A stretch of 64,000 nucleotides of DNA from an uncultured bacterium (GTDB lineage Bacteria > Omnitrophota > Omnitrophia > Omnitrophales > Aquincolibacteriaceae). How positions within the stretch are numbered: position 1 is the first letter of the stretch; every line of letters starts with the position of its first letter. A program made the translations under genes and the position numbers. Positions 17,339 to 53,494 of the stretch are shown here, one piece after another. Where the stretch lies: NCBI GenBank assembly GCA_964482725.1, contig CAYZYT010000012.1, positions 1,310 through 65,309 of the forward strand. Reading direction: 5' to 3'. The notes below the pieces were generated by a model. That model was not told the origin of the DNA, made no database searches, and saw nothing but the letters and a program-made list of their open reading frames with translations.

Positions 17339-17654
17339 AAATCACATCTTTCACTTATCGCAATAATATACCACTTCTGCGAATCCGCCAAACCACTCGG
17401 CCTATCCGCCATACATCACGTCGGATCAGTCCGTTCGCTGAAAACCGCTCACGGCTGAAAAAAAAGAGGTTCGTGACCGAGTGGGGATCTGGTGGCCACG
17501 AACCTCTGCAGGTGAGTCGAGACCCGTAAGTCTCGCATGCCGATATTATACTCCCGAGCTTTCCCCTGTCAACGCTCCGTCCAAGTCTTTTTTTTATTTA
17601 CATGCCTGGTGACCCGGGCAGCCCCGATCAATGACCTAGCGTTATGCTCTCAAA

Positions 17655-17700
17655 CTGCGGATAAAAGAAAAGCCCGGCTTCGAACAACCGAAACCGGGCT
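17655..17700 (-). terminator. Rho-independent terminator downstream of the giant gene
   Basis: Hairpin agcccggcttcgaacaaccgaaaccgggct, preceded on the plus strand by aaaagaaaa (a U-run in minus-strand sense). Confidence 0.6.
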
Positions 17701-17725
17701 TCGAAAAGATTCTCTTCTGTCAGGC

Positions 17726-20700
17726 TTACGCCGACACGGAGGTGGCTTTCTGGGTCAGCATATCCGACCACAGCTTGGTCAGGCCTTCCAGCAAGATTTC
17801 ATTAATGTCGTAGAGACCATCCCCCTTCTTTTCAAGGACATTATCCCCTACTTGCTGACGCAACAGAGCATTGGTTTGATCCACACCATTCTGCGCCACG
17901 TTTCCGGCCAAGAGGCTTCGGATCGCAGCATTTCGTTTCTGGGCCTGTTTCTGAGCCCGGAGAACGGTTCCCACAAATTGCCCCGAAAGATCCAGCCCTT
18001 CTTCAATAAGGATCGTCAAATTAGCCCGGGTAATGGCAGCATTCCCGCGCATGAGAGCTGCCGCGGCACTATTGGCGAGCGCCGATTTCGAAGACCTCAT
18101 TTTAAACTCGATCTGGACGCGCGGACCGATCTTTGCCCCCTTATGATCAAACGAATTTTGGACATTTTGAATCGCGCCCTTGAGAACCGCTTGTGCCGCC
18201 GCGTCTTGGAAAAGCGCGTCATTGGCAATGACAAAACGCTCGACCAGTTGGGTCTTCGTGCCAAGCCGCAAGCTCATATTCTTAAAATCTTCGTCGCTCG
18301 GCGCATCCGCCTTGACCGTCACCATGCCCCCGGACTTGTCAGAAACGGCCATGATGGGATTCTCCAGAATATTTTTTGCAAGACTAAGAAATTTTTGCCA
18401 GTTGAGATCACCCGCCTTCAGCGCTACAAGCGTCGTCAACATCGCCGCCACATCTTCAGCGTTAAGCATTTCGAGTTGAACCGGCACAATGATCTGCCCC
18501 AAAACATCCGCCAGAGAATCCACGCCACGTTGAAAATGCGTACTGATCAACTTCCGTCGAACCTCCGGGGTCTTACCGAGAAGAACCCAAACCTCTTCGG
18601 CCAACACTCGGCGCTGTTGCTCCACAACCGGCCGTCCTTCTGGTTTATAAATATCCACAACACCGGGGGTGAAACGACCTTCCGAGCGCGGCAACAAAGC
18701 GAGAATCTGCGGGATAATCCGGACTTCCAGGGTCGCGTAACCTGAAGCGTCCAAAGCGACATCGGATCTCTGGACCTTATAGGCATTACTTTGCAAGGCC
18801 TTGGCCACAGTATCTAGGTAATTTTTTATCGACTCCAAAGCTTGGCTTCGATCCACACCATCATTCCGGCGGAGCGCAAAGCGAACAAGAATCCCCGGGC
18901 GATTTCCTTTAGAAGGTGTGATCGATTCCAGGTCCAGCCGGCCCGCGTTAGCGATCCTCGACTCCAAATCGAAAATACCATAGACCGGCGTCAAAGGATA
19001 AGCGGCCCGCCTTTCTGTCAGAGCATTGACGACCGCGGCATCCAATTTAAACTCCTTGGCCAAGTCCCTCACCTCGGCGCGAGGCGCGGTGCTGATCTGC
19101 GGATTAAACGAATCCAGTGCCGCCTTAATCCCCTCAACGGTCGGAGAGAACGATTTGCCTCTGGCCGAGAGAGTTCTTACGTTCCGGGGATACCGGTACA
19201 CGACACCGTCCTCTGCAACAAAATCATATTGGCCTGCGGCGGGGAATTTCCGGTAGTGCGTCTTCATGGGGCCATTTAAAAACTTTTGGAGATCAAGCGC
19301 CGCATTCTGCGGATCCCTCGGATCCACACTTAAAACCAGCGCTTCTCTCTGTTTGATGACCTGTTTAACGATAATCCGTGTATTCTTTTCGGAACCCTCT
19401 TGAGTTACGCGGAACTCCCCTTTCCGCGTCTCGGAGCGAGCGGCTTCAATCCAGCGAGCAGCCTCGACAACAAATGCGGACTGAGCGTTCCAGTTTTGAC
19501 CTATCGGCACCTCGGCATTCCAGCGCACCACAGCGTCCAAAACACCTTTCAAATCATTCATTTGCCCAAAATAAAGGCTGAGCGCTCTTGCATACAAACT
19601 CGGATCTTTTTCAATCGCCTGCAAAAACTCAGGAGCTAGCAGTTCCTGACCAAGCTGCTGCGCGATCAAATCGCGCCGTTCAGGCTTCTCATGGCTAAGC
19701 AATAACTCCCGAAAAGACTGCTCGATCTCCTGGGTAATCGCCCCACGATTCGGGATGTTGCCACTCTTTGAATACCGCAGGGCTAATGAAGCTAGCTTGC
19801 TATCGGCCATCCGGCCCAACCCCCGGTTGAGCGGCGTCGCGTTATCATAAATGGAATTTTCGATTTTTCTGACAGCTTGCTCGACCGTCGCAAAGATATT
19901 CTCCCCTGGAGCGCGCGGGGCTTTCAGCATCTCAACGGCTTTTATCGCAGACTTTGCCATGACGACCCGGTCAAAGACTTTGAACTTAATGGGATGCTGC
20001 CCTTGAAGCGTCTGCACCACAAGCACCGGTCCGACCCAACTATCCGGCGCATCAGAAACCTGAATAGCAGATGTGATTTTCTCACCGTCTTTCGCAGCTA
20101 ACAATTGGACCGCATCTACCGTGCCCCGGCGAAAACCGAATAATGACTGTTCTAGCCCGGCAGGATTCATCGCAACGGCATCCACCACTTCCATCCTCCC
20201 CTCGGAGCGAGCGGTTAATTCAAACACGACCTGGATATCCCCCAACAAAATATTTTTTTCTGATTCCTGGGCATTGGTCCATCCGTCCACTCCCCGACTC
20301 AAAACCCTGACCTTCGCGGTCCCGTTCATATTTTCAGAGGAAATATCGCTTTCAAGAACAATGTAGACCTTGCCATGGTCGGGATGATCGGAACGATTGT
20401 GGAAAACGACCTGACCGGGATTGATACGCCACCCGGCCTGGGGCTGCACATTCACAAACCCGCGGGACTGCAACTCCGGGACCAAGTTTTGTTCCACCGT
20501 ATTTCCTGCCAGCGTGGACAAAAGGGCTTCCTTGATCCGAGCCAATCGCGCAGCATCCAACCTCGTCTCGGAGCGAGAGACAAACACTTGCCGGCCTCCG
20601 CCTCCATCTGTGACCTTGGCTTTTCCGGTCGCTATCAAGCGATACATGTCGACCACCGACATTATTTGATTCTTGTCAAAAAGTGAAACTGTTGTAGTCC

Positions 20701-23700
20701 CTGCTATTTCCTGGCTCTGTAAATACTGCAGCGCCGGGACTGCGACTGGATCATTTACCGAATAATCAACAACATTAGCGCCATTGCGCCGATCCGGTTT
20801 TGCAGATATCAGGCCCGCACGAATGCCTTCCTTAGCAATCTCGACCGACAAGCCCACATTCTCCGTTTCACTGATCTCAACACTCACCGCTGTATCAGGA
20901 GAATTCTTTGACCTAAGCTTCTTTTGAGCCAGATCAGTTCGCACAAAATCCGGGATATCCATGTCCGCGGGCAGGAAAAAATAAAATCCATCATTACCTA
21001 TCTGGCGGTAGCCAATCGTAGGATTGCGATCACGAAGGTCCGTATCCAGGGCGCTGGCTTTTAATCTCTGAGGTTGCGTCTTCGGCTTCTCAGAAATGGC
21101 GAGGAGAGAATAATCGCTACCATTGGGTATGCCAAAAACATCATAAAATTTCGGAGCAGCGTATTCTCGTCCAAGTGCTGACTCCGTGGTGATATCTCCC
21201 CCTCTCGCCTTTTGAGCCGCCTTGATAAGCTCTTCTTTGGGACCCGTCAACCTCACCTCGGAGCGGCCAAGCTCAGCCTGGATCTGGGCGCGGCGTTCAT
21301 TCACATTCGTGAGCACATCCTGAGGCGCTGCCGGATTGTCGACCAACCACCGGTCGATCTCGGCAAGAGACGCCGCCAATTGAGCATTTGCCAAAACAGG
21401 AGCGAGTGCGCCATTTGCTGCTCGGCCCGCCTTCTCAAAACTCATATCCCGGTCGTCTGTCAGTTTAAGCCCGGGGCGACCGAGCACGTCTCTTAGCCAG
21501 GCATTCTGCTTAACCAAAGCCTTGATCTCCTTAACCAAAGCCATGATCTGTAACTTCAAGTAGCCCAGGTGCAAAAGACTTCCCACTCTCGTATCACCAA
21601 GGCGCGCGATCTGTGCGTTCCTCTGCGCGGCCGGCACGAACACCAACCAATGAAAGATGGAGGAAACTGCCGTGAATGCGAAAAGGCCGATGGAAAAAGA
21701 CAGGAGCTTTTGATATCCGACAAAGCTCATTCCGAACGAGCCTTGCCCGACACCGCCAACATACGGAAGAACCTGATCCGTTGTCATTGTTCCCGTCCAG
21801 GCAAATGCAACAAGCCCTGCGGAAATCCCCGTCGCCCATAACAGCCCTTCCATGATCTTCTCGCTCACCGCCCTCGCCTCGGCGCGAGGGATAGAACCGG
21901 ATATGACGGCATATAATCCGCCTGTTTGATCGGCGGTATTGAATGCACGCTCTCGGTCAACGCCTCCCTTTTTGGAGCTGGCTATGATTTCGTCAGCTCT
22001 TGGAAGCCTCCTCACCAGATCCAAAACCATGCCGCGGTCGGCTTCAGAGAGCATAAAATTGGCCGCGAGGGCGTCCTGAAAAACGTCACCTTCATAAACC
22101 GGCAGTTTTGAAGCGACATAGCCAACGTCTTTGAATGGCGCCCGCAGCAACTCTTCTGTCTGACGGAACAATTCTGCAAGATATCCGGCGTACTGAGCGA
22201 CAAAGACCGGATCATTCCATTTTTCCTCCGGAAGCATCCGGAGAAGCTGTTCGGTGGGTTCCTGCAACATCGGCATGCGATCAAACCACGCTGGCAGCCC
22301 CGCAGCCCCCTGTCCCCTCGCCTCGGAGCGGGGAACAAAGACATCATTCGGAGTCCATTTTTTGGGCCCAACCCAGGCATCAAATAATTTCTGAAGGTCA
22401 CTAACCTCTTTTCTGGGCGCAGGTTGGGTTGCTTCGATCCGATCAGCTAATGACCTGAGTCCCGCTATAATTTTGGTGCGTTCACCCTCCGCGACGGCAG
22501 CCGTTTGGATCTTTTTAAGTACCGTCCCCAGGTCCTGAAGACCGGTAACCAGCTGAAATCTTGTTTTATCGACTTCCCCTGACTTCGTCAGGAGCCCAGC
22601 TTTAGCTAGTAAGAGCACCCCACCAAGCATCTCTGCTTTAGTTGCCGAAGCCCCGCCGAAATTCATGATAGAAGCCGAAACCGCTCCTTGCCTGAGCGCC
22701 ATGCCACGCAAAACCTCTACCAACTCAGGCGCAGTGAAAGACAAATCGGCGAATTTCTGATCTCCCCGCGAGTGGACTTCTTCAGCTTGATTCTCCAACA
22801 TAAAGCTATACAGTCCGATCGCGACGGCTCCCCCCCTCGACTCGGCGCGGGCGGGCGTTGCGGTTAATCCGGGGAACTGCCCAATCGACAAAAGGTATTG
22901 GTTAAACGCCAGCATTACGCTAATAGCCTTTTCTGATCCAGCCGGCGCCGGACGCAACTCGGCATTTTGCCCAAACATAGGACTTACAGCTGTCGCTAAT
23001 TTCAATAGTTCAGCCTGGATATCCACTTCGTCTGTGTTCAGGCCTTTAACATACTCAATAGCGGCGAGCCACATCGGACGCTGGGACGGAATTCGCATCC
23101 CCGATTCACGCCGTTCTCCGGGTTGATCCGCCAGCCTCTGGAAGTGCGCTACAAGATCTGCGGCTTTAACCCTTACCTCGGAGCGGGCTGGAGATGCGGT
23201 GGATCCTGGAAATTGGCCGATCGAAAAAAGGTATTGGTTAAACGCCAGCATTACGCTAATAGCCTTTTCTGATCCAGCCGGCGCCGGACGCAACTCGGCA
23301 TTTTGCCCAAACATAGGACTTACAGCTGTCGCTAATTTCAATAGTTCAGCCTGGATATCCACTTCGTCTGTGTTCAGGCCTTTAACATACTCAATAGCGG
23401 CGAGCCACATCGGACGCTGGGACGGAATTCGCATCCCCGATTCACGCCGTTCTCCGGGTTGATCCGCCAGCCTCTGGAAGTGCGCTACAAGATCTGCGGC
23501 TTTAACCCTTATCTCGGCGCGGGCCACGGAAACTTCTGGCTTCCCAACATTGAGCAAGATCGTCTTAATGGGCGAAAAGGGGTCCGGCAGACGCGTCCCT
23601 GCGGAAGTTCTCGCGAAATCATAGGCAGGCAACCGCGTGTTCAGGGACTGTAGCACTTCAACCAACTTCTCATCCGGCATACTAGACATTTCTTTTAAGA

Positions 23701-26700
23701 GCGTACCCGCCGCGGATCTTACCCTTTCATCAAGTTCCAGTTGATTAGAAACACCCTCCAACGCCATCCGAATGATTTCTCGATCCCTCTCGGTCAATCT
23801 CACTTCGGCGCGGGCCACGGAAACTTCTGGCTTCCCAACATTGAGCAAGATCGTCTTAATGGGCGAAAAGGGGTCCGGCAGACGCGTCCCTGCGGAAGTT
23901 CTCGCGAAATCATAGGCAGGCAACCGCGTGTTCAGGGACTGTAGCACTTCAACCAACTTCTCATCCGGCATACTAGACATTTCTTTTAAGAGCGTACCCG
24001 CCGCGGATCTTACCCTTTCATCAAGTTCCAGTTGATTAGAAACACCCTCCAACGCCATCCGAATGATTTCTCGATCCCTCTCGGTCAATCTCACTTCGGC
24101 GCGGGCTTGTATAAATTGTTTTTCCGTGGCGCGGGCCCGTATAAATTCCTCTTCCGTGATTTCCCAGCCAGCCGGGATCTCTCTCGAATTAAAATCGACT
24201 GTCTTATTCGTGGCATTAAAAGGGATGCGCGCATATTGTCTCTCCCACACACCGTCAGCCCCAAGAACCTGATGCATCACAAAAATAGCGTCCTTTGAAA
24301 CAAAGCGCTCAAGAAGATTGGTAACATCCACGAATCCTTGATCTTTAAAGTGGACCGTAAAAACAGGGTTCGTCACCGTAGGCTCAACGATCTCGATATT
24401 GGCCGGCACCCCAGTCGCCGCAAGCGCCCCTGTAGCTTCCGGTACGGCGCTCGGAGCAACTTTAAGGCCCACGTCCATCACATCATTGGTTGTATACGCG
24501 TCGCGAAGATTCATCGCAAAGAATCCAGCCGCAGCAGCGTTTGTCAGCGGAAAAGATCTGTACCCGAAGTAGTTCGTACCGGGTTCAAACACGCCCTCGA
24601 TACCGGTCCCTTCGTTGTTCCAGCCAGTAAGCAAATTGGTACTGGAAATATAATCCGCAACCGCGTAAACCGGATTTGTTCCCGGGACCACGATGATAGG
24701 GGTCAAAACCATTTGCGCAGGCATGTTCGTCGTCGCCGGGACGAATTCCGGCTGGATCGAAATCTCCACTAAATTGGCGGAGAACGCCACACTCCCCATG
24801 ATCGAAAAGGCTACCGCCGTTGTCGCCAACTTCCCGGCCTTCGCCTTGCCTGGCTTGCGAATGGGTCTGATTAAATCTCCCGCATAGGGAAGAACCGCAG
24901 GGACAGAAGCCGGCGACATGGAGTATTTCCCGAACTGTGGCGCGGGCTCTTTCGGACGGAGATCACGCTCATTTTCCAAAATGGGTGCCAGAGCTTTCTG
25001 TGCCGCAATACCCGTAGTACCAAAGATCGTCCCGGATTCGACAAGAACGCCGCCCGGCAAAGCCATCTTTTCCGAGACCGTCGCAGCAACGGTCCCGTTG
25101 ATGGTCACGGATTGGGCCTCCGGCGAACTCGAACGGACCTTATAACTATCCTTGACGGGCTTTCCTTGAGCGTCCACTTCTTGAATGAGGGTGATGCCTT
25201 TTTTAACGGCGAGTTCCGACTGATTAAAAATCTCAACAACACCTGCAATGTTCTTATCCCCAACCCTGCTCATCGCTCCAAGAATCACAGCATATACTTC
25301 TTCGGGCCGGATACCCTGGGCTGCCAGAACGCCATCGCTCATAAGCTTTGACGCCATTTCAAGGTACGAGATCGAAAAAAGGTGCTCCCGATCCTGGAGC
25401 ATGGCGACACGGTATAAATTCTCATCGGACTTTTCGGAAAGACGCGGGGTGACGATGCCGTAGCTAATGGCGTTCTCCCTGAAAAGATCGCTCATGCCGT
25501 CGGTGTGGAAACCGCCGGTGATCAGAATGGCTTTGGTGATCTTCTTCTCTGCCATCTGGGACTGCATCTCTTTATAGAAGACGGCTTCACGCTTGTGAGC
25601 AAAATCATAGAACTCGAGGCCGGCAGTGAAAAGCTCATCCATCTTGGCGGCGAACTTAGGGGGCATCACATCACTAACAGACTGGCGACTAGAGACTGGA
25701 GACTGGAGGCTGGAAACCTTTTGACTTTGGTCTCTGGTCTCTGGTCTCTGGTCTGTGGTCCGTACGGCGCTTACCAGCCGTGCAGCAAGACTCGGAATCG
25801 CAACCTGGTCTTTATTCGAAAGCAGCTGCTGCCACTGTGTGCGATTGAGCTCAAGATGAAGAAGTTTACGCAAAAGCTCACCATCCCTATAAAGGGCGAG
25901 GAGTGCCTTCTGCTGAGGCTCCTGCGCTAAGGTATCGAGCATCTGCGTAAAAAGATATTCGATCTCCTCAAAAAGGACCTTGGGGTCCAGTTCCGATCGG
26001 AGAGTCACATAACCAGCAAAAAGACTGAACGCGGGATAATCGCTGAATTTAAAACCTTTGGGGCCGGCTTCCTGGGCCAGGCGTTCCAGCACTTCGCGCG
26101 GCGAAACTTCCGTAGCCGACTTCCCTACGGCAATACTTCCTTCATTGAAATTTTCAAGTGTCGCGAGAAGTTCTTTGGAAACTCCCTGGGTGCGAAGCAC
26201 CTTGATAAGCTTGGCCTGCTCTTCCTGCCCCTTCGTTTTATTCATATCTTTTTCCAGCTGCTGGATGACGAGAAGGCGTGAGATCTGCGGCCAGCCAACC
26301 TGAGCAAAAAGACTTTCAAGGTCAACGTTCAGGATCTTCTTGGATTTCACGGTAAGACTTTTGACGAAGGGCATGAAATCGCGGCGGCCCTGCTCGAAAC
26401 GCTTCCAGTCGGCGATCAGTTCCCGGGTCTCGGGTGAAAATGTTTGAGAAGCAACCTTGTCGAGTTTTCCGTCGAATCCTTTAAAGAAGTGCGACACATC
26501 GGCTTCAGCACCGAACACTTTTTTCAGAGCGTCATAGTTGGCCTTATATAAGGAAGCTTCTTCAATACCAAGAGCCTCGATATTCTTGTCAGCCTCCATC
26601 ATGTAGAGTTCGGCGCCGGTAAGCTCACCCTGCTTGGCAAGCTCATCACACAGCTTGAGATTGCGTTCCTGGTCCGGGAAGAGACGCAGGTAATCCGCGT

Positions 26701-27028
26701 CCAGTTTCTCAGAGGCTCCTTCGACGAAGATGGTCTTGAAACCATACTTCTTATTCATATGACCCAAAAGCTGCTTGATCTTCATCTGGGCCTGGTAATT
26801 GGCATGGGCATTCTGGATATGAAGAATGAATTGCGTATTAGCTCCGGCGGGCGCTTCATAGAGCGCATCCACAGTACCGAGTTCCGGAGGAATATCAATG
26901 CTCAGATAGGAAGGAAGCTCGCGCTGGCCGGCCATTTCGATTCCGGCGCCTGGGGCGGCTGAGACGCATTGCGTCGTCAGAAAGCAAAATAAGGTGCCCG
27001 TCGCAACCACCTTAAGCATGTTTTTCAC
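17726..27028 (-). CDS. Giant (3100 aa) secreted, membrane-spanning modular protein with a TraB/GumN/Tiki-like N-terminal domain and about 14 modules delimited by a recurring [AP]R[AS]E[VI]R motif
   Basis: Uninterrupted 9.3-kb ORF. Signal peptide MKNMLKVVATGTLFCFLTTQCVSA. The N-terminal domain carries FILHIQNAH...TIFVEGA and the GumN-like C-terminal motif ILITGGFHTDGMSDLFRENAISYGIV. A central hydrophobic block (GLLWATGISAGLVAFAW...FVPAAQ) predicts TM helices. Two in-frame tandem repeats are present, of 112 aa and 97 aa. Confidence 0.85.
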   Translation of the reverse strand: MKNMLKVVATGTLFCFLTTQCVSAAPGAGIEMAGQRELPSYLSIDIPPELGTVDALYEAPAGANTQFILHIQNAHANYQAQMKIKQLLGHMNKKYGFKTIFVEGASEKLDADYLRLFPDQERNLKLCDELAKQGELTGAELYMMEADKNIEALGIEEASLYKANYDALKKVFGAEADVSHFFKGFDGKLDKVASQTFSPETRELIADWKRFEQGRRDFMPFVKSLTVKSKKILNVDLESLFAQVGWPQISRLLVIQQLEKDMNKTKGQEEQAKLIKVLRTQGVSKELLATLENFNEGSIAVGKSATEVSPREVLERLAQEAGPKGFKFSDYPAFSLFAGYVTLRSELDPKVLFEEIEYLFTQMLDTLAQEPQQKALLALYRDGELLRKLLHLELNRTQWQQLLSNKDQVAIPSLAARLVSAVRTTDQRPETRDQSQKVSSLQSPVSSRQSVSDVMPPKFAAKMDELFTAGLEFYDFAHKREAVFYKEMQSQMAEKKITKAILITGGFHTDGMSDLFRENAISYGIVTPRLSEKSDENLYRVAMLQDREHLFSISYLEMASKLMSDGVLAAQGIRPEEVYAVILGAMSRVGDKNIAGVVEIFNQSELAVKKGITLIQEVDAQGKPVKDSYKVRSSSPEAQSVTINGTVAATVSEKMALPGGVLVESGTIFGTTGIAAQKALAPILENERDLRPKEPAPQFGKYSMSPASVPAVLPYAGDLIRPIRKPGKAKAGKLATTAVAFSIMGSVAFSANLVEISIQPEFVPATTNMPAQMVLTPIIVVPGTNPVYAVADYISSTNLLTGWNNEGTGIEGVFEPGTNYFGYRSFPLTNAAAAGFFAMNLRDAYTTNDVMDVGLKVAPSAVPEATGALAATGVPANIEIVEPTVTNPVFTVHFKDQGFVDVTNLLERFVSKDAIFVMHQVLGADGVWERQYARIPFNATNKTVDFNSREIPAGWEITEEEFIRARATEKQFIQARAEVRLTERDREIIRMALEGVSNQLELDERVRSAAGTLLKEMSSMPDEKLVEVLQSLNTRLPAYDFARTSAGTRLPDPFSPIKTILLNVGKPEVSVARAEVRLTERDREIIRMALEGVSNQLELDERVRSAAGTLLKEMSSMPDEKLVEVLQSLNTRLPAYDFARTSAGTRLPDPFSPIKTILLNVGKPEVSVARAEIRVKAADLVAHFQRLADQPGERRESGMRIPSQRPMWLAAIEYVKGLNTDEVDIQAELLKLATAVSPMFGQNAELRPAPAGSEKAISVMLAFNQYLFSIGQFPGSTASPARSEVRVKAADLVAHFQRLADQPGERRESGMRIPSQRPMWLAAIEYVKGLNTDEVDIQAELLKLATAVSPMFGQNAELRPAPAGSEKAISVMLAFNQYLLSIGQFPGLTATPARAESRGGAVAIGLYSFMLENQAEEVHSRGDQKFADLSFTAPELVEVLRGMALRQGAVSASIMNFGGASATKAEMLGGVLLLAKAGLLTKSGEVDKTRFQLVTGLQDLGTVLKKIQTAAVAEGERTKIIAGLRSLADRIEATQPAPRKEVSDLQKLFDAWVGPKKWTPNDVFVPRSEARGQGAAGLPAWFDRMPMLQEPTEQLLRMLPEEKWNDPVFVAQYAGYLAELFRQTEELLRAPFKDVGYVASKLPVYEGDVFQDALAANFMLSEADRGMVLDLVRRLPRADEIIASSKKGGVDRERAFNTADQTGGLYAVISGSIPRAEARAVSEKIMEGLLWATGISAGLVAFAWTGTMTTDQVLPYVGGVGQGSFGMSFVGYQKLLSFSIGLFAFTAVSSIFHWLVFVPAAQRNAQIARLGDTRVGSLLHLGYLKLQIMALVKEIKALVKQNAWLRDVLGRPGLKLTDDRDMSFEKAGRAANGALAPVLANAQLAASLAEIDRWLVDNPAAPQDVLTNVNERRAQIQAELGRSEVRLTGPKEELIKAAQKARGGDITTESALGREYAAPKFYDVFGIPNGSDYSLLAISEKPKTQPQRLKASALDTDLRDRNPTIGYRQIGNDGFYFFLPADMDIPDFVRTDLAQKKLRSKNSPDTAVSVEISETENVGLSVEIAKEGIRAGLISAKPDRRNGANVVDYSVNDPVAVPALQYLQSQEIAGTTTVSLFDKNQIMSVVDMYRLIATGKAKVTDGGGGRQVFVSRSETRLDAARLARIKEALLSTLAGNTVEQNLVPELQSRGFVNVQPQAGWRINPGQVVFHNRSDHPDHGKVYIVLESDISSENMNGTAKVRVLSRGVDGWTNAQESEKNILLGDIQVVFELTARSEGRMEVVDAVAMNPAGLEQSLFGFRRGTVDAVQLLAAKDGEKITSAIQVSDAPDSWVGPVLVVQTLQGQHPIKFKVFDRVVMAKSAIKAVEMLKAPRAPGENIFATVEQAVRKIENSIYDNATPLNRGLGRMADSKLASLALRYSKSGNIPNRGAITQEIEQSFRELLLSHEKPERRDLIAQQLGQELLAPEFLQAIEKDPSLYARALSLYFGQMNDLKGVLDAVVRWNAEVPIGQNWNAQSAFVVEAARWIEAARSETRKGEFRVTQEGSEKNTRIIVKQVIKQREALVLSVDPRDPQNAALDLQKFLNGPMKTHYRKFPAAGQYDFVAEDGVVYRYPRNVRTLSARGKSFSPTVEGIKAALDSFNPQISTAPRAEVRDLAKEFKLDAAVVNALTERRAAYPLTPVYGIFDLESRIANAGRLDLESITPSKGNRPGILVRFALRRNDGVDRSQALESIKNYLDTVAKALQSNAYKVQRSDVALDASGYATLEVRIIPQILALLPRSEGRFTPGVVDIYKPEGRPVVEQQRRVLAEEVWVLLGKTPEVRRKLISTHFQRGVDSLADVLGQIIVPVQLEMLNAEDVAAMLTTLVALKAGDLNWQKFLSLAKNILENPIMAVSDKSGGMVTVKADAPSDEDFKNMSLRLGTKTQLVERFVIANDALFQDAAAQAVLKGAIQNVQNSFDHKGAKIGPRVQIEFKMRSSKSALANSAAAALMRGNAAITRANLTILIEEGLDLSGQFVGTVLRAQKQAQKRNAAIRSLLAGNVAQNGVDQTNALLRQQVGDNVLEKKGDGLYDINEILLEGLTKLWSDMLTQKATSVSA
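22890..23526 (-). repeat. Intragenic tandem duplication, 336-bp unit x2, near-identical at the DNA level
   Basis: About 300 bp at 22890-23190 are repeated at 23226-23526, with short divergent junctions. The unit encodes the 112-aa unit AEIRVKAADLVAHFQRLADQPGERRES...GQFPGSTASPAR. Confidence 0.85.
23509..24099 (-). repeat. Intragenic tandem duplication, 291-bp unit x2, near-identical at the DNA level
   Basis: Anchor cggaaacttctggcttcccaac occurs at 23527 and 23818 (period 291 bp). The unit encodes AEVRLTERDREIIRMALEGVSNQLELDE...NVGKPEVSVAR (97 aa). The plus-strand small ORFs at 23459/23741 are duplicated artefacts of this repeat. Confidence 0.85.
25690..25752 (-). repeat. Heptanucleotide microsatellites inside the giant ORF: (AGACTGG)x3 and (GGTCTCT)x4
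   Basis: gagactggagactggaggctgg ... ggtctctggtctctggtctctggtctgtgg. The 7-nt unit is not a multiple of 3. The tracts encode the low-complexity stretch RPETRDQSQKVSSLQSPVSSRQS. Confidence 0.7.
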
Positions 27029-45685: not shown

Positions 45686-46810
45686 TTACGTATCTTTTCC
45701 CAACGCGATCTCTTTAGGCGCCGGAGCCACAACCTGGCCCTGATGTTGTTCCAGGACATTCAGCCGGTTCCGTAATTTTTGGAACCGCTGCTCCGTTTTT
45801 TCATACGCCGTACGGGCATGCGCCAGATGCCCACCGATCTTTTCAAAATCCGTCAGGCACTGCTCCAGGTCAACTTCCAACTGGCCCAAGTTCTCCAAGA
45901 TGATCTGAGCCGAGCGCTCGATCCTCATCCCTTTGAGTCCGCGTACGATCGACTGGAGATACACATAAAAACTGTTCGGCGAGACGGGGATGACCTTGCG
46001 TTTCATGGCATACGCTGAAAGGCTTTCATTCTGAGCATCGTCCTTGATGATCGTTTCATAATAAATACTCTCGGAAGGAATGTACATAAGCGCGAACTCG
46101 AAGGTGCCTTCTTCGGGCAAAATATATTTCGAACCGATGTCATCAATGTGTTTTTTGACGTCCCGCCAGAATCCCTTGCGCGCTTCCCCTTGTTTTTCGT
46201 CGCTCCCCGCTTCCAGAATTCGCTTGAAATTCTCAAGCGGGAATTTCGCATCCACCGGGATCAATCCTTCGCCGAGCCGGATGATGGCGTCCACCTGGGA
46301 GCCGTTCGCAAAGCGGTACTGAAGAGCAAAATGGTCTTCCGGCAGGATCTGGCGCAAAAGTTCCGCGAGGAGTAGCTCCCCCATGCCTCCGCGAAGCTTC
46401 GGAGCCCGGAGAATATCATGCAGCGAAGAGATGTCCTTCCCAATATCCATCATGGACTGCGTGGCGTGCTGCAGAACACCCAACCGATGCTGGACATCGC
46501 CCATGACCTGACGGTAATTCTGCTGATTTTCCTGAAGGAACTGGGTGTTCTGCTTCATCTGATCGTTCATCTGGCGCGCGAGAGTCTGGATCTGGTCCTG
46601 CAGCGTCGTATTGAGATTATGGAGTTCCTGCTGGAGCTGGAGGAATGGCTGGAAGGTCTTGTCGTCTGCGGAGGTTCGTTTCGACAGATGCTGAAAAAAC
46701 CAAAAGACCGCAATAAAAGCGCAAAGGGAAGCTGCCACCGTGATGAGCACTAAAAGGGACGCGTTCATGAGCGGATTATAGCTTAAAGAAGGACTCCAGA
46801 CCAGAGACAA
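45686..46810 (-). CDS. rmuC: DNA recombination protein RmuC
   Basis: N-terminal TM segment plus coiled-coil, then the RmuC core ...RGGMGELLLAELL...IPVDAKFPLE. Confidence 0.85.
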   Translation of the reverse strand: MSLVWSPSLSYNPLMNASLLVLITVAASLCAFIAVFWFFQHLSKRTSADDKTFQPFLQLQQELHNLNTTLQDQIQTLARQMNDQMKQNTQFLQENQQNYRQVMGDVQHRLGVLQHATQSMMDIGKDISSLHDILRAPKLRGGMGELLLAELLRQILPEDHFALQYRFANGSQVDAIIRLGEGLIPVDAKFPLENFKRILEAGSDEKQGEARKGFWRDVKKHIDDIGSKYILPEEGTFEFALMYIPSESIYYETIIKDDAQNESLSAYAMKRKVIPVSPNSFYVYLQSIVRGLKGMRIERSAQIILENLGQLEVDLEQCLTDFEKIGGHLAHARTAYEKTEQRFQKLRNRLNVLEQHQGQVVAPAPKEIALGKDT

Positions 46811-46879
46811 GAGACTGTAGACAAAAAAGCAATAGCCGCTGGCCTTTAGTCTGTAGTCTCCAGTCTCAAGTCTCTCGTC

Positions 46880-53281: not shown

Positions 53282-53366
53282 AAGTGAGACATTAGCAGAA
53301 AATCTTTAAGAAAAACAGTCCGAATTCCTCAATGCCTATCAATTTCAACAAGTTTAAAATTGGGCG

Positions 53367-53494
53367 GTCCCAATTCCTTTCAATCGAAGCAAAGCTGAGA
53401 TTGGGGCTGCCCTGGCTACCATTCAAAAAAAGAAGGGTAAAGTCAGGGCTGTCCCAATTCCTTTCAATCGAAGCAAAGCTGAGATTGGGGCTGC
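53367..53494. repeat. Two 45-bp direct repeats (period 83 bp) in the pilA-pilM intergenic / pilM promoter region
   Basis: g(g/t)cccaattcctttcaatcgaagcaaagctgagattggggctgcc at 53367-53411 and 53450-53494. Confidence 0.7.

Follow-up and report, generated by a model that had tools for sequence, protein, structure and literature searches.

MARTX toxins of Vibrio and its relatives carry a strain-specific array of unrelated effector domains between conserved termini. Recombination reshuffles the array, and an internal protease sets the effectors free by cutting in the inter-domain linkers, which share only a Leu at P1. Viral polyproteins and the yeast alpha-factor precursor, the latter with K-R-E-A-E-A spacers, also hold many units in one open reading frame (ORF) with a short conserved recognition sequence between them, and spacer codons of the alpha-factor type additionally permit units to be gained or lost by unequal crossing-over. 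Here we analyse a giant gene encoding 3,100 amino acids (aa) in a 64,000-nucleotide (nt) stretch of DNA from an uncultured member of the Omnitrophota (contig CAYZYT010000012.1 of assembly GCA_964482725.1, positions 1,310 to 65,309; hereafter the window). Two tandem duplications in this gene, to which an earlier note made from the letters of the window had drawn attention, expose a protein whose interior is an array of cassettes, very probably punctuated by the five-residue motif R-[S/A]-E-x-R.

Proteins of at least 10,000 aa and up to 147,000 aa have been described from the Omnitrophota, of Archaeovorin or Dockerin types and with dockerin, C39, S8 or SecA-like domains (10.1101/2023.11.21.568195; 10.64898/2026.06.07.730766). 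These giants are among the largest known proteins, and they may act whole or as many pieces. West-Roberts et al. (2023; 10.1101/2023.11.21.568195) proposed that they are cleaved, could not split them and stated that the cleavage points were unknown. The 2026 preprint (10.64898/2026.06.07.730766) reports strict nucleotide tandems in 17% of long genes and mentions neither a motif nor cleavage. Neither work reports a punctuation motif, a shared N- and C-terminal chassis or recombination at linkers, and the motif strings were not found in the searchable literature in the context of giant proteins. Duplication is an ordinary kind of event; the architecture which it exposes here appears to be undescribed.

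The family of the window protein overlaps the Omnitrophota “multi-enzyme long proteins”. Like these and the Archaeovorin-type giants of the same phylum, it has very long ORFs, many unrelated enzyme or regulatory domains, an N-terminal signal and transmembrane (TM) segments. The window protein differs from the giants of the literature in its size of 3,100 aa and in lacking dockerin, C39, S8 and SecA-like domains. The likeness to MARTX toxins, a variable array between conserved termini, is an architectural analogy only. Pfam scans of the whole window protein and of its terminal domains found no RTX/glycine-rich repeats and no C80 cysteine protease domain, and a type I secretion signal was likewise not detected; in addition, the motif is here a strict five-residue one, the taxon is another and the cargo consists mostly of orphans. 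Viral and alpha-factor precursors have a known protease and are viral or secreted peptide precursors, whereas here a bacterial chromosome encodes unrelated whole-protein units of 100-1,000 aa, for which we infer cleavage from sequence.

Module duplications joined at linker codons

The giant gene lies on the minus strand at 17726..27028, as do all of its parts described below, and starts with GTG. It encodes an N-terminal domain (N-domain), a region behind it (post-N region), 12 cargo modules bounded by the motif (M1-M12) and a C-terminal domain (C-domain). Its product is identical to P0001, a protein of a metagenome-assembled genome (MAG) at NCBI, which is called 3 codons shorter.

Two near-identical in-frame tandem duplications had been reported within this gene, and both exist, at coordinates that were right to within a few bases. 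A repeat search found 23514-23804 and 23805-24095, of 291 nt each, to be 100% identical and, 336 nt apart, 22825-23124 to be 94% identical to 23161-23460. Tandem Repeats Finder returned 2.0 copies of period 291 at 23514-24106 (100% matches, score 1186) and 2.0 copies of period 336 at 22841-23524 (95% matches, score 1277). Both periods are divisible by 3, corresponding to 97 and 112 codons, and both arrays are in frame within the giant ORF.

Each duplicated unit is exactly one module running from motif to motif. The 97-aa unit is present as M1 (aa 976-1072; 23813..24103), which starts with RAEVR, and as M2 (aa 1073-1169; 23522..23812), which is 100% identical to it. The 112-aa unit follows as M3 (aa 1170-1281; 23186..23521), starting with RAEIR, and M4 (aa 1282-1393; 22850..23185), starting with RSEVR.

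The 291-bp array is 100% identical across 24106 to 23514, and the same 11-mer, GCCCGCGCCGA on the gene strand, within A-R-A-E codons, stands at its start (24096..24106), at the junction between its two copies (23805..23815) and at its end (23514..23524), which is also the start of the 336-bp array. A fourth copy marks the end of the 336-bp array (22842..22852). All four lie at unit boundaries, bracketing and dividing the 1.26-kb duplicated block, and the 64-kb window holds four copies against 0.12 expected from shuffles (0 of 100 shuffles reached 4). Microhomology occurring three times at the spacing of the unit is what duplication between two short direct repeats, whether through unequal exchange or slippage, classically leaves behind. 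As the 291-bp pair is flanked and joined by 11 nt of identity in motif codons, its origin is an unequal exchange, or slippage during replication, involving two adjacent sites that encode linkers. The junctions do fall on a recurring motif, as the earlier note had it, and this motif plausibly mediated unequal exchange.

The 336-bp pair is a mosaic. The ~271-276 nt past the motif are 100% identical between M3 and M4, whereas ~14 differences, of which 6 are synonymous, separate the two copies over their final ~65 nt. An identical 5' part together with diverged tails is not what one recent duplication could yield, and the pair is therefore an older duplication of the same kind whose 5' ~275 nt were later homogenised, probably by gene conversion. 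The very recent origin which the earlier note ascribed to both duplications holds for the 291-bp pair and does not extend to the 336-bp pair.

A 30-bp x2 tandem repeat (24098..24157; Tandem Repeats Finder span 24098-24158), absent from the earlier note, encodes EFIRARATEK / QFIQARAEVR and represents a degenerate extra copy of the motif with its 5 upstream residues. Since it encodes a decayed motif together with upstream residues, slippage has acted at this site on several scales. Taken together, we regard it as highly probable that the duplications are real and were mediated by the motif. They are the freshest example caught of a cassette being duplicated at its linkers.

A motif between modules throughout the family

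The DNA motif which had been seen to recur at the junctions does so, and it is not a mere GC-rich DNA word, as it encodes the conserved peptide R-[S/A]-E-x-R. The string CTCGGCGCGGG occurs on the plus strand at 22841 and 23513, where the coding strand reads CCC GCG CCG AG, part of A-R-A-E codons. The giant protein contains 13 copies of the peptide, compared to 0.15 expected from its composition, and a six-frame scan of the 64-kb window found it to be essentially restricted to the giant ORF. At the DNA level, the consensus CGC-KCC-GAG-NNG-AGG with at most 1 mismatch gave 10 matches against 0.39 expected, all inside the giant gene and on the gene strand. The 15-nt sites (start to start+14) together span 18674..24103 and start at 24089, 23798, 23507, 23171, 22835, 22316, 21872, 21251, 20561, 20195, 19424, 19067 and 18674. 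They split the C-terminal two-thirds of the protein (residues 976-3100) into 13 segments of 97-320 aa, with the last motif 320 aa before the end of the protein.

Homologues of P0001 comprise 116 further proteins of 1,800-5,400 aa, most of them labelled Candidatus Omnitrophota and some few Endomicrobia, Eisenbacteria or Chlamydiae. Common to them are only the N-terminal ~545 aa and, in many, the C-terminal ~300 aa. The motif occurs 720 times in these 117 proteins, ~85 of which carry 2-24 copies where fewer than one is expected. The first copy is found near residue 667, just past the N-domain, and the last one is ~317 residues away from the C-terminus. Conservation is confined to the five motif positions, which read R, then S (77%) or A (23%), E, a variable residue (V/A/M/S/T/L) and R; just upstream, small residues are weakly preferred. 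Minor variants are RPExR (P0028), RSDxR (P0014) and KSExR (P0064).

Distant members without R-[S/A]-E-x-R use another motif, G-x-R-L-[A/S], which P0092 carries in 11 copies (0.04 expected), P0107 in 9 and P0088 in 5. Its placement is the same, with the first copy right past the N-domain and the last at a distance of 310-338 residues from the C-terminus, and the proteins that use it are mutual nearest neighbours by their N-domains.

The interiors of the homologues contain very diverse Pfam domains, including methyltransferases, response regulators, kinases, sugar-metabolism enzymes and TPR, WD40 and HEAT repeats. Recognisable enzyme or regulatory Pfam domains of this kind are absent from the cargo of the window protein. 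Pfam domains in the homologues never span a motif; modules with a REC domain are 145 aa long, and three UDP-glucose dehydrogenase domains share one module. When the homologues were cut at the motif, 24 pairs of adjacent modules were homologous to each other at 25-100% identity, and in 75% of these the alignment starts at most 10 residues from the motif in both copies. Other young duplications were seen in P0011 (108 aa x2, 95%) and P0038 (69 aa x4 and 87 aa x2, ~90-94%). In BLAST comparisons of whole, uncut proteins, 28% of the starts and 22% of the ends of homology blocks between different proteins lie no more than 5 residues from a motif, compared to 4% at random.

These observations show that modules are duplicated, exchanged and replaced in register with the motif and that the interior behaves as an in-frame cassette array. 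That the motif acts as the peptide-level punctuation of this array is very likely. A motif shared across the family, with clade-specific dialects, offers a concrete and testable map of unit boundaries for module-wise structure prediction, and in-frame duplication and exchange of cassettes at linker codons offers a mechanism by which giant proteins grow and diversify.

A hypervariable interior in a conserved genomic slot

The window was compared with 17 loci of relatives from other Omnitrophota MAGs. Its flanking genes are shared in up to 12 of the 17 loci, where they are syntenic and 75-96% identical at the protein level. In the order common to them, pheS, pheT, mgsA and a PilZ-STAS gene stand upstream, and DUF1844, an LPG-synthase-like gene, aroQ, accB and accC downstream. 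Among the syntenic orthologues the giant gene encodes between 1,571 and 3,680 aa, with 57-83% identity in the N-domain and 29-44% in the C-domain. DNA homology with the orthologous loci stops at ~25,350 and returns only at the last codons of the gene.

Little of what lies between has a counterpart. The post-N region (aa 561-975; 24104..25348), which is without motif, is matched in only four loci, by short stretches of its first ~60-75 residues. No counterpart of M3-M10 or M12 was detectable in any orthologue, and for M11 a single weak match was seen, to L005, with 38% identity along 81 aa. M1 and M2 both match a single copy in L002 (67% aa and 73% nt identity), which is located elsewhere in that gene. 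The cargo modules M5-M12, of 119-257 aa each (18689..22849), are all orphans.

A search of the 1,805-aa interior against 5.8 billion proteins found one other protein, P0118, with a single copy of the 97-aa unit; homology begins exactly at RSETR and stops at ARAEVR. No relatives of the 112-aa unit were found in the orthologous loci or among the 5.8 billion proteins. Because the 97-aa unit is single-copy in both relatives that have it, its doubling is lineage-specific. By the same comparisons, even close relatives show complete turnover of the interior.

Pfam and NCBIfam scans of the whole giant protein and of both duplicated modules gave no significant match. The first ~20 residues of the 97-aa module (LTERDREIIRMALEGVSNQ; 23745-23812 and 24036-24103) gave a non-significant match to the beginning of the GerE/LuxR helix-turn-helix profile (E 0.02-0.1), which was not relied on.

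A dedicated conserved neighbour, such as a protease or transporter, was considered and rejected, as the flanks consist of housekeeping genes and there is no obvious partner except the PilZ-STAS gene, which lies next to the giant gene in as many as 12 of the 17 loci. In MAG CAZDVO01, two family members occur in one genome (L010 and L012), each after a PilZ-STAS gene. L012 ends with a second PilZ-STAS fragment, which suggests tandem duplication of a unit formed by the PilZ-STAS gene and the giant gene.

Conserved ends as a chassis

An exhaustive search with an N-domain profile matched the representatives of 10,351 clusters formed at 50% identity, and 7,310 of these matches reached E<=1e-30. All have the domain at residues ~1-560, in proteins of up to ~7,500 aa. 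Neither Pfam nor NCBIfam has a model for this very large family of more than 10,000 clusters, most of them from Omnitrophota, which is hereby flagged.

In the window protein, the N-domain (aa 1-~560; 25349..27028) begins with a hydrophobic, signal-like stretch and combines an alpha/beta core with a large helical insert; its structure model has a pLDDT of 84. Invariant in the alignment are H72, E100, E153, R477 and G502-G503-x-H505 (numbered as in P0001). Weak matches below significance to PF04187, PF01963 and PF18950 all fall on the R...GGFH stretch, and Foldseek gave a weak match to 3b55, which we take to be a structure of the erythromycin-esterase family. With the Tiki/TraB-PrgY-GumN/ChaN/erythromycin-esterase superfamily the domain may have in common an N-terminal His motif (HIQxAH), a Glu (VEGA), an Arg, a C-terminal G-G-F-H and the alpha/beta core. 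It differs from this superfamily by a ~330-residue helical insert that is absent from known members, and all matches remain below significance.

The C-terminal conserved module (aa 2781-3100; 17729..18688) is preceded by RSEGR and ends in ...ATSVSA. It is modelled as a Rossmann-like alpha/beta fold, and comparison for identification found only generic Rossmann-like similarities with TM-scores of at most 0.33. Nearly all complete members of the family end in [AS]-A (...ATSVSA or ...ATSVAA), and no sequence of the C-domain alignment departs from Ala at the last position. The [AS]-A tail, encoded at 17729-17746 of the window, could be a C-terminal recognition tail such as a degron or a processing or secretion signal.

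Minimal members of ~1,000 aa (among P0121-P0163) consist of the N-domain and C-domain with zero or one motif and are apparently cargo-less. Because these two domains are all that minimal members contain, the architecture is that of a chassis, with cargo inserted between conserved N- and C-terminal ends.

What the punctuation may do

The best overall explanation, to which we give a probability of roughly 55%, is a cassette-like polyprotein in which the linker is a peptide recognition site, probably for processing, and its codons serve as a recombination joint. A recognition site is suggested because the motif is strict and short, lies at unit boundaries, is kept while the units turn over and changes with the clade of the conserved domain. 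As in processed polyproteins, a short conserved site recurs at the boundaries of complete protein units.

Proteolytic processing is the most economical reading of such a recognition site. That the punctuation is in fact a processing site we propose tentatively, at somewhat below even odds. The polyprotein would be cut at the motif into separate proteins, with the weakly Tiki/TraB/ChaN-like N-domain as candidate protease, and the linker codons would double as recombination joints for in-frame gain and exchange of modules. Cleavage would also explain the use of modules that begin with Sec- or Tat-type signals. In the family, hydrophobic signal- or anchor-like segments occur within 45 residues downstream of 7.3% of motifs, compared to 0.8% upstream and 3.7% at random positions, and five Tat-like signals follow directly after a motif.

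A wider and more doubtful possibility is a self-processing polyprotein system of bacterial chromosomes, in which the more than 10,000 clusters from Omnitrophota and neighbouring lineages would be cargo carriers. The N-domain or a partner protease would cut at R-S-E-x-R / G-x-R-L-A and thereby free strings of enzymes, of regulators and of proteins for export, which might be delivered to prey or host cells, while the linker codons would be in-frame joints allowing turnover in species-level time. If this is true, the motif would be the missing cleavage map of the Omnitrophota giant proteins.

Several observations weigh against a processed polyprotein. The minimal ~1,000-aa members often lack the motif, and processing is therefore not intrinsic to the chassis. 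The signal-like segments follow few motifs and could be internal membrane anchors without cleavage, and Met after the motif is only marginally enriched (p~0.05). Codon use at the motif is more stereotyped in the clade of the window than the peptide needs, which leaves room for a role at the DNA or RNA level. Lastly, a single MAG assembly from short reads is the source of both the copy number and the evidence that the duplications are real.

Among the alternatives, the one that survives best is a peptide linker that stays uncut and serves for docking, as a hinge or as an element recognised by a chaperone, by secretion or insertion machinery or by a modifying enzyme. Dozens of modules would then sit like beads on a string on one membrane-tethered scaffold, and duplications would add beads. 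A motif that is conserved as peptide with clade-specific dialects would suit this role, as would the small residues enriched just upstream, as in a flexible linker, and the motif-free minimal members. The 2026 preprint (10.64898/2026.06.07.730766) moreover predicts most long Omnitrophota proteins to be membrane proteins with a signal peptide and many TM helices, and internal signal-like segments could therefore be anchors. However, known passive linkers are less specific than a strict motif of five residues in which two Arg and one Glu never vary. A Tat-type signal right behind a motif is hard to use unless its N-terminus is free, and the cargo (REC domains, kinases, sugar-nucleotide enzymes) normally occurs as free cytoplasmic proteins. 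An uncut linker is plausible, if less probable than processing.

A less probable alternative places the primary function at the level of nucleic acid, with the consensus acting as a recombination joint or as a Shine-Dalgarno-like (GAGGNGAGG) signal for translational pausing or re-initiation at the borders of modules, and the peptide as a by-product. Its attraction lies in the 291-bp duplication junction, which falls exactly within the shared 11-mer, and in the codon stereotypy of the motif. In 96 motifs from 16 genes, the first Arg is written CGY in 89% (background 46%) and the second AGR in 56% (24%), TCC makes up 69% of the Ser codons (23%) and GAG 71% of the Glu codons (47%), and at the free x position 69% of codons have G as their wobble base (32%). 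Nevertheless, the amino acids are kept across different codon families, as Arg at both positions uses CGN and AGR, and Ser uses TCN and AGY. The G-x-R-L-[A/S] motif of P0107 is written in very diverse codons without any nucleotide consensus. Start codons are not enriched at a suitable distance downstream, and the frame is kept open over 3,100-7,500 codons, which a re-initiation system would not need. From the use of both Arg and both Ser codon families, the dialect of a distant clade at the same positions and the diverse codons of P0107, we conclude that selection acts on the peptide. In the clade of the window, stereotypy at the nucleotide level is then most simply a by-product of linkers that spread by recombination and make good microhomology joints. 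Internal translation starts after the motif were also considered and rejected as the main explanation, the enrichment of Met or start codons being marginal.

The earlier note had expected a surface protein whose length varies between strains. The locus is indeed hypervariable between relatives, yet this variation comes from replacement of modules and not from repeat number, and adhesin-type repeats and Pfam domains are absent from the protein. A surface protein or adhesin built of repeats, with repeat number varying between strains for antigenic or length variation, would agree with the signal-like segment at the N-terminus, with the hypervariability between related genomes and with the presence of young tandem repeats. 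It is improbable in view of the following: there are only two copies of each unit, and the units are unrelated orphan modules with no array of a single repeat in at least 3 copies. Scans found no adhesin, Ig-like, RTX or cell-wall-anchor domains, and the cargo of the homologues includes cytoplasmic-type enzymes. Relatives differ by wholesale replacement of modules, with the 97-aa unit single-copy and the 112-aa unit missing there.

An artefact of short-read metagenome assembly, by which a repeat loop was walked twice or two strain variants were placed in tandem, is very improbable: while the window is from a MAG contig (P0001 is seen on a single contig of 66,781 bp), exact 291-bp tandem copies are not reliably countable with short reads and no second assembly of the same strain was found (an exact 25-mer of the 291-bp unit had no match in the metagenome contig collection, nor did the exact protein have an entry in the contig index), the unit ends share only 11 nt, far under assembler k-mer sizes, so that no graph loop is formed, both junctions preserve the frame and rebuild the canonical motif, the diverged tails of the 336-bp pair each require junction reads of their own, and similar young in-register module duplications occur in the independent assemblies of P0011 (108 aa x2) and P0038 (69 aa x4, 87 aa x2).

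Other features of the window

The single strongly hydrophobic segment of the giant protein comprises aa 1775-1793, within module M7, and a signal-like segment is found at the N-terminus. Directly past the stop codon of the gene there is a terminator-like hairpin with a 15-bp stem followed by a T-run (17669..17702). An alternative genetic code or a read-through artefact behind the long ORF was rejected, as the neighbouring genes are of normal length under table 11. A search of the region for RNA genes found none.

Within the giant gene, an imperfect palindrome of ~96 nt (25670-25765) is composed of 7-nt repeats, (GACCAGA)x4 ... (CTCCAGT)x3 on the gene strand. It is in frame, encodes RPETRDQSQKVSSLQSPVSS and falls in an N-domain loop that is modelled with low confidence. 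Its folding is far stronger on the plus strand (-49.7 compared to -30.8 kcal/mol). Both arms recur in a second copy at ~46797-46875 between two genes, and the RPETRDQSQKVSSLQSPVSS peptide is also present in P0035 at a different position of the N-domain (aa 168). The palindrome looks like a small dispersed element that is tolerated in frame.

Downstream of the giant gene, the intergenic region 17404-17575 is 90-95% identical to the orthologous loci, above the identity of the flanking coding DNA. It has no tRNA or Rfam match and contains a perfect sigma-70 consensus, TTGACA-16-TATAAT, at 17572-17545 on the minus strand. This region may represent the promoter and leader of a DUF1844-accBC operon, or a small RNA. 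Elsewhere in the window, a degenerate tandem repeat of 42 nt x3.1 with 59% matches is located at 53362-53493.

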